This document shows, piece after piece, positions 5,520-52,400 of a DNA stretch of 64,000 nucleotides. Position 1 is the first letter of the stretch; every line of letters starts with the position of its first letter. The notes beneath the pieces were generated by a model that did not search any database, had not been told where the DNA came from, and saw nothing but the letters and a program-made list of their open reading frames with translations. The position numbers were made by a program, and so were the translations under genes. The stretch lies in the NCBI GenBank assembly GCA_964016885.1, contig OZ024755.1, forward strand, positions 10,788,001-10,852,000, read 5' to 3'. This DNA comes from Eledone cirrhosa. Taxonomy: Eukaryota.

Positions 5520-5734
5520 AGAAAGTGAGGTTTTTTTTTTTTACAAAATGAAAAATAACCGAGGTGTACTACACGAGTGGAAGTATAAAGAAAAAGAGAT
5601 GAAATCGAAAATGCAACTGAAGTCTTATTTTTTAAAAAAATATATATATTTATTTGGTTCCTTTACCGGTTTCGCAGTTCTTCTGCTTTTCAAAAGGTGA
5701 GTTGAGATGGAGGGTCTGTGGTTTTTCTCACATC

Positions 5735-8822: not shown

Positions 8823-8940
8823 ATAGCTGTATTGTATTATTGCGTCATCGTGGTATTTCGATCTGTTTCTTTCAGTCAGCATGCTTCCGCTTTCACATTC
8901 AATAACATACGCAGTCACACATATCTGAACACTCTCTCTC

Positions 8941-8984
<44 letters not shown>

Positions 8985-9122
8985 TCGTATATATATATAT
9001 ATACGACAGAGACTGTTCAGGTATGTGTGACTGCGTATGTTATTGAATGTGAAAGCGGAAGCATGCTGACTGAAAGAAACAGATCGAAATACCACGATGA
9101 CGCAATAATACAATACAGCTAT
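8823..9122. repeat. Long inverted repeat (~120-bp arms) with TA-microsatellite loop
   Basis: Outer ~100 bp of the arms are exact reverse complements; ORFs 8832+ and 9113- translate to the same peptide because of the symmetry. Confidence 0.95.
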
Positions 9123-11685: not shown

Positions 11686-11840
11686 GAAATGAGAGAGAGA
11701 GAGAGATTAGGATTTCACCTATTCTAAATTAGTAATATCATTATTCAACGGCAGGAGCTCAGCCGCCGAACTCGGACTCTCTAATAGATATATATATTTA
11801 GAGTGTAATATGACAAATAATGTTAGTCTAGTCTAAATAT

Positions 11841-11881
<41 letters not shown>

Positions 11882-12083
11882 CATATATATTATTTATGTG
11901 TGTGTGTGTGTATGTATATGTATATATGGTGCTCTGAAATAGCGATATATATATGAATGTATATATAGTGTATTTTGCAATACACTGTATGCTTAATTAA
12001 AAGCATTTCGAAGACCTCACGCTATTGTTTTAGAGTAGTGCCAGTCTCATTACTTTAAATTTTCAGCAAACAAGGGGAGATAA

Positions 12084-12126
12084 AGCTGACAGCTCTGTTT
12101 CGTACTGATCGGTACTTATCAAAGCC
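12084..12126 (-). ncRNA. Type I hammerhead ribozyme, U3-A8 variant (copy 1)
   Basis: Minus strand GGCU-UUGAUAA-GUAC-CGAUCA-GUAC-GAAA-CAGAGCUG-UC-AGCU; stem III 2 nt shorter than in copy 2. Confidence 0.7.
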
Positions 12127-12432
12127 AAGTACTCCACCTGTTTGCTGAAAATTGTGAATGTTTGATTCTTATAGAATTCTATTAATAATCAGGAACTGAT
12201 TATACAGAGCGGTTGCCGATATATATATGAATGTATATATAGTGTATTTTGCACAGTGTATTGCAAAATACACTATATATACATTCATATATATATCGCT
12301 ATTTCAGAGCACCAATTATAATTTTTAATTTCTGCTTGACTGGCAACCGCTCTGTATAATCAGTTCCTGATTATTACTAGAATTCTATAAGAATCAAACA
12401 TTCATGATTTTCAGCAAACAGGTGGAATACTT

Positions 12433-12477
12433 GGCTTTGATAAGTACCAATCAGTACGAAACAGAGCTCTGTCAGCT
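12433..12477 (+). ncRNA. Type I hammerhead ribozyme, U3-A8 variant (copy 2)
   Basis: GGCU-UUGAUAA-GUAC-CAAUCA-GUAC-GAAA-CAG-AGCU-CUG-UC^AGCU; all three stems pair; GUC cleavage triplet ends at 12473; stem I extended by 14 perfect bp (12407-12420 with 12489-12502). Confidence 0.82.
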
Positions 12478-13266
12478 TTATCTTCCATTGTTTGCTGAAA
12501 ATTTAAAGTAAGTGAGACTGTCACTACTCTAAAACAATAGCGTAAGGTCTTCGAAATACTTTTAATTAAGCATACGGTGTATACACTATAAATACATTCA
12601 TATATATGTATATATTAACATTTTGTTATCTCGTAGAAAATACATGATATCTCTGGATGAATTCAGAACATAGTCACAATTAATTTCCTATATCAAATTT
12701 TTTTTTTTTTTTTACTTATTAGTAAAATAACAATACATTAGGTTATATTACACTTGATTTCACTTAATTTGATTTTTACTATACTATTGTCTTCATCAAT
12801 TTCTAATATACCACTAAATTTATCACGTTATCATTTCAGCAATAATAAATACAGTTTAGAGGAACTAATATAATTTACTACGCCACACAAATGACTTTAC
12901 AGTTAGTTTTATTTATATTGATTTTTTTCTTGTATCTTAACATTTAATTTAAACAGTATGTGTGACAATCTCAGCAATCTATTTTTTTTTTTTTTTTTTA
13001 TATATATATACATACGTTGGTTTTATATTTTCTGGGGACAGGGGTTAAAATGTATATATATTTTTTTTTCGCAAAATCAATATTTACTAAACCACCCCCA
13101 ACGTACACTCGTATACAGACATTTTAAACATATTTCCTTACATAATAAACAACTCACTTATCTCATTTATAAATTGAATAATAACATAAATTTATTCTGT
13201 AACTTCTGTTGCTTTTGTTTTGTTTTTTCGATACTAAAAGCAACGAACCCAAACAACCAGGTCCTC

Positions 13267-41633: not shown

Positions 41634-41967
41634 GGGCGAGTAAAATTCCCGAGATCCATGGACGAGTTCTCTCCAGCGGTCTCTGTCCCTCTTTACCGCT
41701 GCCATGTCCTGCGTCTCGAACAGACCAGTGTCTGTCCTTAGGCCATCAACATACGTTAACCTTTGGTCTTCCTCTTCTAGTGCGTCCATGCAGGGGCTCC
41801 CACAGGAGCACTGAGTGCAGTGTCGACTCTGGATGTCGGTGAGCATGTCCAGCTAACCTCAGTCTTCTCTGTGTCACTTTTGAGCTGACTTTTGGGAGGC
41901 TCCCATACAGCTGTGAGTTTTTCATCCTCAATGTATACTGATTAATGTTCAGAGCCATCCTCAGCAT
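41633..41967 (-). mobile_element. RTE-clade LINE, non-inverted 3' segment
   Basis: MLRMALNI...RRLRLAGHAHRHPE...LLWEP.HGRTRRGRP, then frameshift to RLTYVDGLRTDTG...DRDRWRELV; ends at (TA)n. Confidence 0.9.
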
Positions 41968-42338
41968 TGGTGACAAATATAGGGAAGGAGGCAGAGGATT
42001 TGATGCAGGAAGTTGAGACTGTGTCGATGAGTGTGGGGCTGAGAATGAATGAGACTAAGACAAAATGTCTGGTAGAGAATGTTGCGAAGCCAGAGGGGAT
42101 TACTAATGTAGGCGGGAAGCCGCTGGAATTAGTTGAGGACTTCCTGTATTTGGGAGCAAAGATTGGGAATACGGAAGATGATGTGGTTGAGAGGAAGAGC
42201 AAAGCCTGGGCGGCGTGCCACAGTTTCAGATCGGTGTGGAAGTCGGACCTTCGTGAAGACCTGAAGATCTGCCTCTTCATTGCTGTAGTGGAGTCTGTGC
42301 TGCTGTACGGGTCTGAGACTTGGACACTGACCAAGAAA

Positions 42339-42341
<3 letters not shown>
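41968..42341 (+). mobile_element. RTE-clade LINE reverse-transcriptase/thumb segment, inverted relative to the 3' segment
   Basis: VGLRMNETKTK...VEDFLYLG...KAWAAC...VWKS...VESVLLYGSETWTLTKKL are typical RTE RT C-terminal motifs; ends at (TA)n. Confidence 0.92.
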
Positions 42342-42399
<58 letters not shown>

Positions 42400-42826
42400 T
42401 CGTCGATCTACGTTTACATTTCATTGTATTTCAAAACATATATACATATGAGTATATGTCTGAATAGAAACTTTAAATTTTCCTAGCATTCTTTTTTTAT
42501 GACCAAATATTTTTCTTATTTATTTTCAAGCGCTTAGTGGAAGCGAAAAAAAAGTATTTTTTTCTAGGCCTTACGGAAATCAAACTAGATGTAACATAAG
42601 ATAGCAAGCAGCAAGTGGCATGTTATCGCTATCGTATCTCTACTATGTTCACTGCGATTATACGATTCATTAAACTTGATTCAAACTCGTCTATTTGAAT
42701 TGTGAGCGACATCAGTACACATTTCAACGACAGTCAGCATGTGGTATATAAATTATTTATACACCATATATATGTAATGTATATTATTCTATACATATGT
42801 ATATATACATATATATATACACATAC

Positions 42827-51533: not shown

Positions 51534-52400
<867 letters not shown>

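Follow-up and report, generated by a model that had tools for sequence, protein, structure and literature searches.

The stretch of Eledone cirrhosa DNA analysed here (64,000 nucleotides of contig OZ024755.1, hereafter the window) contains an insertion made of two arms joined head to head, with one hammerhead on each strand and the arms facing apart (Table 1). The tail end of the minus arm, at 11927, abuts a (TA)n tract, and the (TA)n flanks mask any target-site duplication. Since the two hammerhead copies lie on opposite strands and face apart, they can form neither a double hammerhead nor mutual pairing within one transcript, and having one hammerhead per strand the locus could at most cut a passing transcript once. 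No open frame of 120 or more amino acids was observed over the insertion, and the locus is likely a spent one. Elsewhere in the window there are long inverted repeats around TA-rich centres (8839-9106 and 51563-51663), possibly further head-to-head insertions, and, at 41942-42467, a putative LINE fragment that resembles the C-terminal portion of a reverse transcriptase and is interrupted by a TA repeat. A scan of the whole window against Rfam was dominated by microRNA models falling on TA repeats, and the output of the repeat finder by microsatellites.

Table 1. Features of the head-to-head insertion, in positions of the window
Feature	Position	Strand	Basis or remark
(TA)n/(TG)n microsatellite flank, likely target site	11830..11926	.	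sequence; family-wide pattern
Inverted minus arm with a 44-nt internal deletion and the tail 3' end	11927..12253	-	joined 5'-to-5' to the plus arm at about 12253/12254
Segment at the tail 3' end of the minus arm	11927..11943	-	3'-end mapping
Second hammerhead, U3-A8 core	12059..12152	-	lacks 2 nt of stem III; cleavage site predicted at the C of position 12088
Plus arm, about 1.1 units of the 320-nt repeat, short 3' end at a TA run	12254..12607	+	
Internal tail copy and spacer, linking successive units	12298..12341	+	lost from the minus arm by deletion
Extended type I hammerhead with long stem I	12407..12502	+	sequence, fold, covariation, HH9 alignment
Stem I next to the core, GGCU with its partner AGCU	12433..12436 and 12474..12477	+	
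Core strand U3 U4 G5 A6 U7 A8 A9 (UUGAUAA)	12437..12443	+	U3 = 12437, A8 = 12442
Stem II, GUAC/GUAC (4 bp), with the 6-nt loop II CAAUCA	12444..12457	+	loop aligns with the HH9 loop
G12 A13 A14, palindromic stem/loop III (12461-12472) and C17	12458..12473	+	GAAA 12458-12461, CAG-AGCU-CUG 12462-12471, U12472, C12473; C17 = 12473, predicted cleavage site

A sequence-only reading of the window had described a type I hammerhead at the plus-strand position, and its letters are exactly as that reading gave them. The motif has Y3 U4 G5 A6 N7 R8 A9, G12 A13 A14, an A15.1-U16.1 pair, H17 and a paired 3:8; three helices surround the core, stem I being open-ended, and 94.7% of the cells in the alignment of copies presented below are paired. 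The 14 distal pairs previously assigned to stem I (12407-12420 with 12489-12502) are all perfect, whereas UGGAA/UUCCA, which had been taken for an internal loop, is actually a 5-bp helix whose exact pairing is private to this copy, most copies having UGGAG. The palindrome is real, although larger than the AGCU of loop III to which it had been confined: it runs without a mismatch over the 12 nt from A15.1 to U16.1. When a 111-nt stretch was folded it gave a z-score of -5.13, and none of 200 shuffled sequences folded as well. Cleavage is predicted after C12473 from the numbering of hammerhead positions. As for the minus-strand copy, for which positions 12084-12126 had been given, it does share the UUGAUAA core, but its stems are not all kept as had been thought, 2 nt being missing in stem III/loop III. 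That a search for CUGANGA alone would miss such motifs, as the earlier reading remarked, follows from the sequence itself.

The hammerhead sits in one unit of a non-coding repeat of about 320 nt (period 320) that is dispersed in this 3.0 Gb, microsatellite-rich genome. A pattern comprising the core with U3-A8, stem II and GAAA has 1,346 exact genome matches, compared with one for the reversed control, while an anchor outside the ribozyme has 2,071 and the tail motif of the family 5,482; a DNA similarity search returned 1,790 candidates, of which 40 were scored. Sixteen natural monomers, measured from cleavage site to cleavage site, are 303-327 nt long with 33-35% GC, and eight of these, folded as circles, have predicted z-scores of -3.3 to -8.7 (30 shuffles each). 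Arrays of at least 17 and of about 14 units occur. Several subfamilies can be told apart, the more distant of them brought out by sampling with the tail motif, among them C (451 pattern matches), E (425) and the sister subfamily F (loci L439-L444, e.g. L442, L443 and L444), whose 310-nt units are identical on several contigs and occur in head-to-head multimeric insertions as well as in an array of at least 16 units; judging by its sequences, subfamily F is very young. We found no description of this 320-nt family in the literature covered, mostly open-access texts exclusive of supplements, and such supplements may list U3-A8 retrozymes.

Some loci are unusual in their arrangement. At L083:1470-1896 and at L136 two different subfamilies lie side by side, suggesting template switching or nested insertion; at L215:1208-1810 there is a tandem of a 165-nt deletion derivative that has no hammerhead; and copies of subfamily B about 44 kb apart (G000:C2:338330095-338463079) suggest a segmental tandem duplication.

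The window copy has U3-A8 at the 3:8 core pair, and some other copies of the family have C3-G8. In an alignment of 60 distinct rows the pair was U-A in 44, C-G in 11 and unpaired in five. The rows were drawn from the first 100 matches to the anchor outside the ribozyme, all on one contig; 69 of them passed a filter on the stem I arms only, seven fold-back junctions were dropped, and the window copy was added, giving 63 rows, 60 of them distinct. Genome-wide, with a GUAC/GUAC stem II, we counted 1,346 U-A, 108 C-G, 12 C.A and 15 U.G cores, where the last three numbers come from a wider pattern than the first. The paired states are also fixed per subfamily, as C-G is found in 92 of the first 100 rows of subfamily C and U-A in 95 of 100 rows of subfamily E (both by eye), and subfamily F has C3-G8, while mismatches are scattered over single copies.

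A tree of 45 of the 151 candidate copies requires two double changes at 3:8, and a tree of 24 hand-picked copies requires three, the latter tree being rooted on subfamily F, which is a long branch. A single clade of U-A copies was rejected (p-AU 1.3e-6 and 1.1e-11), for a group that was named after earlier trees had been seen. Since both states are fixed in subfamilies, mismatches are scattered and two to three double switches are seen, U3-A8 is best regarded as a compensatory change and not as decay, which is what had been proposed from the window alone. One may also consider that U3 and A8 are independent decay mutations in a dead repeat, or that the hairpin is a chance match. Dispersed copies do decay, and we observed 27 mismatched cores; however, these lie on mixed backgrounds, eight of the 27 loci also hold a sibling copy, within the same insertion, whose core is paired, both changes coincide on each of the two to three separate branches, and the subfamily counts contradict such a scenario, which we regard as extremely improbable. 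The sequences indicate instead that the 3:8 pair is kept by selection on source copies, whereas dispersed copies decay. Two other notions were abandoned: C3-A8 copies do not form an intermediate subfamily, as the same background that gave three C.A copies also gave two U.G and U-A copies, and an ancestral U-A state with a single switch, favoured by the first tree, was overturned by wider sampling.

Covariation is not confined to this pair. In the 60-row alignment, 46 cells were changed on both sides, compared with 11.2 in shuffled alignments, although two of five whole-structure measures, the number of doubly changed pairs (235/500) and that of additional pair types (495/500), did no better than shuffled alignments. 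The covarying cells represent few events in related copies. Double changes were seen in these rows at 10.1:11.1 (42 G-C, 11 A-U), at 10.2:11.2 (49 U-A, eight C-G) and in distal stem I (45 G-C, 11 A-U). In stem III covariation was seen in subfamily A5, and in 10 of the 60 rows loop III is not closed by its G-C pair. At 10.1:11.1, the base of stem II, non-canonical pairs also occur: A.A is fixed in subfamily E (loci L347-L376), together with a U3-A8 core, and U.U is found in subfamily F. U4, G5, A6, A9 and G12-A15.1 are invariant in representatives of eight subfamilies that are 56-96% alike, and loop II differs between subfamilies. Among copies of the A group changes are rarer in the core (14 of 548 letters) than in loop II (43 of 322), and in subfamily B the core is not less variable than the loop (10/203 letters, 4.9%, against 5/98, 5.1%).

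Stem III is self-complementary, with AGCU, GGCC or CG as its loop in different copies; it is a near-perfect palindrome in copies having a central A or a tandem G.A, takes several palindromic forms within subfamily E, and in subfamily F and part of E is too short for a hairpin to close. This palindromy, which has been kept through several sequences including those that do not close, points to dimeric cleavage, and bears out the link to dimeric Penelope-type hammerheads that had been suggested for the window copy; a palindromic or short stem III is the reported build of hammerheads that cut as dimers (PMC4209133; reviewed in PMC6765202). In the plus copy of the window the predicted energy of a stem III self-duplex, the only part of the dimer included in these energies, is -20.1 kcal/mol as opposed to -1.8 for the hairpin, and in the minus copy the self-duplex is predicted at -9.0 kcal/mol.

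For the plus copy as a monomer, the predicted ground state pairs stem III/loop III with the core and is more stable than the hammerhead fold by 2.6 kcal/mol, and for monomers of subfamilies C and E the predicted gap between hammerhead fold and ground state is 8 to 18 kcal/mol. A model in which such an inhibitory helix operates fits subfamilies A, A5 and B and fails for C, D and E. The combination of C3-G8 with AGCU, which was not observed, is predicted to be locked off by 3.5-6.7 kcal/mol. A ground state that buries the core could also mean that the hammerhead fold has been kept for protein binding or packaging and cuts little or not at all alone, so that a Penelope protein may be needed as a chaperone. 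In keeping with this, an anole Penelope hammerhead is reported to cleave only with its protein, and core mutants to insert nonetheless (PMC11167929), and minimal hammerheads of Penelope-like elements (PLEs) are reported to cleave weakly in vitro (PMC4209133). Yet subfamilies only 56-63% alike have retained a 3:8 pair and the catalytic nucleotides, U3-A8 hammerheads are active in vitro according to PMC3088659, which cites earlier work (its ref. 32), and coral and mussel retrozymes of similar size self-cleave (PMC7229834). On balance we find a role confined to protein binding or packaging quite improbable.

The ends of insertions were mapped at loci L001-L148 and L183-L247, a non-random sample, with unit positions counted from the cut site. 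There are two 3' ends about 27 nt apart: 104 of 246 mapped 3' ends fall at positions 130-147 and 107 at positions 160-182 (together 211 of 246), and a TA or CA repeat is touched by 100 of the former and 96 of the latter. Among 66 insertions with one arm per strand, 41 have one short and one tailed end, five have two tails, two have two short ends and 18 have another end. The 5' ends are scattered along the unit. More than one unit is contained in 118 of 300 stretches. We observed no enrichment of 5' ends at the cut site, where a single insertion among 300 ends falls. This is locus L185:1442-1742, where each of the two inverted arms begins at the predicted cleavage site, with the 4-nt palindrome of that site common to both, as expected from run-off on a cut linear RNA. 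In each of the four subfamily F insertions with two mapped ends one end is short and the other tailed, and in three of the four both arms are multimeric. All six full units of one young F insertion, counted over its two arms, share a private variant, which fits repeated reading of one circular template, and fits a uniform tandem source too.

The family shows 5' truncation, partial tandems, an inverted 5' arm, a tail at one end and a microsatellite target. These are the marks reported for Penelope insertions, in which an inverted 5' copy and (TA)n targets are also found (PMC8557442) and the one-end tail is attributed to two internal sites at which reverse transcription starts (PMC11167929); truncation, tandems, inversion, tail and AT-rich or (TA)n targets are shared as well with non-autonomous elements mobilised by Penelope (PMC8557442, PMC11167929 and a 2026 preprint, 10.64898/2026.07.22.740005). 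In our data a retrozyme-type repeat bears the Penelope signature of paired 3' ends, inversion and a (TA)n target, and this supports the proposed, as yet unproven, mobilisation of such repeats by Penelope proteins.

Such marks would also be left if the unit were what remains of the 3' end or pseudo-LTR of an autonomous Penelope-like element, spreading through linear tandem transcripts without a circle and with a hammerhead that only releases the RNA. Two 3' ends, inversions and partial tandems are after all the Penelope pattern, multimers are possible from the transcript of a tandem source, and the same preprint argues that animal retrozymes are non-autonomous Penelope derivatives, their origin being reported as pseudo-LTRs. 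In contrast, the hammerhead is of an extended, HH9-like build, and Penelope fragments beside the unit at L009 and L088, found when 150 loci were screened for open frames, were traced to families with other terminal repeats. The six F units with one private variant also look like the product of repeated reading, although a uniform tandem source would give the same. Two Penelope-type families that we compared with the unit have no sequence in common with it, so that they give no support to descent from a pseudo-LTR. All in all we consider the remnant scenario unlikely.

Neither the window insertion nor the 150 screened loci gave the unit a reverse transcriptase and GIY-YIG frame of its own. The genome does contain a young Penelope-like family with intact 775-aa frames for reverse transcriptase and GIY-YIG (15,242 candidates, of which 150 were scored). 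Its terminal repeat carries a minimal hammerhead with U3-A8, which has 14,486 pattern matches genome-wide and is U-A in all of the first 100 rows, and the element ends at (TA)n with a short or a tailed end. We regard it as a candidate partner of the 320-nt repeat. Nested insertions aside, it shares no sequence with the unit, and the few letters common to the tail ends of the two were set aside as a link, because both resemble the (TA)n target. Two further leads to a partner were rejected: the fragments at L009 and L088, since the hammerhead family at L088 has no homology to the unit, and an odd C-G match with a long stem II, which has no reverse transcriptase frame within 10 kb. A copy of the terminal repeat of the 775-aa family lies within the window itself (5660-5693, minus strand), and has a minimal U3-A8 hammerhead with a 6-nt palindromic stem III.

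Among described hammerheads, that of the window aligns with Hammerhead_HH9 (RF02275) over stem II with its loop, the core and the UAC bulge in stem I, and subfamilies A2 and A3 have CAAAAA, the HH9 consensus, as their loop. Its score of 19.5 bits is below the gathering score of 52, so it is not a member of HH9, and in eight loci of different subfamilies no Rfam match reached the gathering score. The sequence-only reading had implied that a U3-A8 core would be new; natural ones were already published in 2011 (PMC3088659) and 2014 (PMC4209133). Perreault et al. (2011, PMC3088659) report natural covariation from C3-G8 to U3-A8 and a tolerated U.U at 10.1:11.1, both of which recur here, the latter in subfamily F. 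Their examples are separate ones, whereas here the switch can be traced on a tree of sister subfamilies, and subfamily E adds A.A at the same place. In Schistosoma PLEs about 1,300 U3-A8 hits are reported, including the Cercyon variant of Schistosoma mansoni (PMC4209133). U3-A8, a palindromic stem III, close pairs on opposite strands and a dimeric mode are common to those Penelope-like hammerheads and ours; in contrast to the Cercyon type, the ribozyme here has an extended build, with a 4-bp stem II, a 6-nt loop II and a long stem I that includes an internal loop, the repeat has no ORF, and both core states exist within one family.

The closest parallel is with metazoan non-LTR retrozymes, which are described as tandemly repeated non-coding units 150-450 bp long, each with a single type I hammerhead, a GC content below 50% and a strongly self-paired predicted circle, and which occur as dimers to multimers, the axolotl forms requiring dimers (Cervera and de la Pena 2020, PMC7229834). 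Unit size, a single hammerhead per unit, absence of coding capacity, low GC and a self-paired predicted monomer are all shared by the 320-nt repeat. The window locus itself has one hammerhead per strand. The family, known here from DNA sequence, differs in that most copies are dispersed, inserted head to head and bearing a Penelope tail next to (TA)n, and in having U3-A8 in its main subfamily; a search of the main text of PMC7229834 found no U3-A8, C3U or G8A.

Taken together, the repeat is probably a non-LTR retrozyme whose RNA is likely cleaved, closed into a circle and then copied with the machinery of a Penelope-like element. The cleavage, dimer use, circular RNA and Penelope partner that we infer would be connected as follows. 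Transcription would start from tandem source copies, and in the transcript two hammerheads, probably joined by way of the palindromic stem III, would release a single unit. This monomer is predicted to close into a circle, mostly in the off state, and its RNA would be copied into (TA)n sites by the reverse transcriptase/GIY-YIG protein of a Penelope-like element. Against the retrozyme reading we count that the hammerhead is not the predicted ground state, that only one of nine predicted Xenopus retrozyme dimers is reported to be cleaved in vitro (10.64898/2026.07.22.740005), and that hammerhead cleavage is reported to be dispensable for Penelope insertion in vitro (PMC11167929). On the same side stand the two measures no better than shuffles, the few events behind the covarying cells, the unclosed loop III in some rows, the A.A of subfamily E, the core variation in subfamily B, the single insertion starting at the cut site, the lack of common sequence with the two Penelope-type families compared, and the Rfam scores below gathering level in eight loci. 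Both the ribozyme variant and the class of element are already known, and the window locus itself is an ordinary one.

A more elaborate version of the retrozyme reading can be offered tentatively, and we would hold it possible but doubtful. Here the 3:8 pair would have flipped two to three times, tuned together with loop III in subfamilies A and B, and an inhibitory helix would hold the monomer circle mostly off while dimers cut. Subfamily F, which in this version might still be active, and the intact Penelope-like element with its U3-A8 hammerhead of about 14,500 copies would form a host-parasite pair, in which the protein would read the circular RNA round several times from two internal start sites. 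If true, rolling-circle retrotransposition of animal retrozymes becomes directly testable, and a young subfamily F together with an intact candidate partner offers a ready substrate for tests of rolling-circle insertion.

The family also provides phylogenetic evidence for the 3:8 core pair, in the form of repeated double switches within one lineage. In three families of this genome there are 1,346, about 400 and about 14,500 matches to U3-A8 motifs, so that scans with a consensus miss much. Loci L153-L182 represent yet another element, short and of high copy number (2,311 candidates), with a minimal C3-G8 hammerhead and a (CA)n/(TA)n end, in a sequence unrelated to the 320-nt unit.
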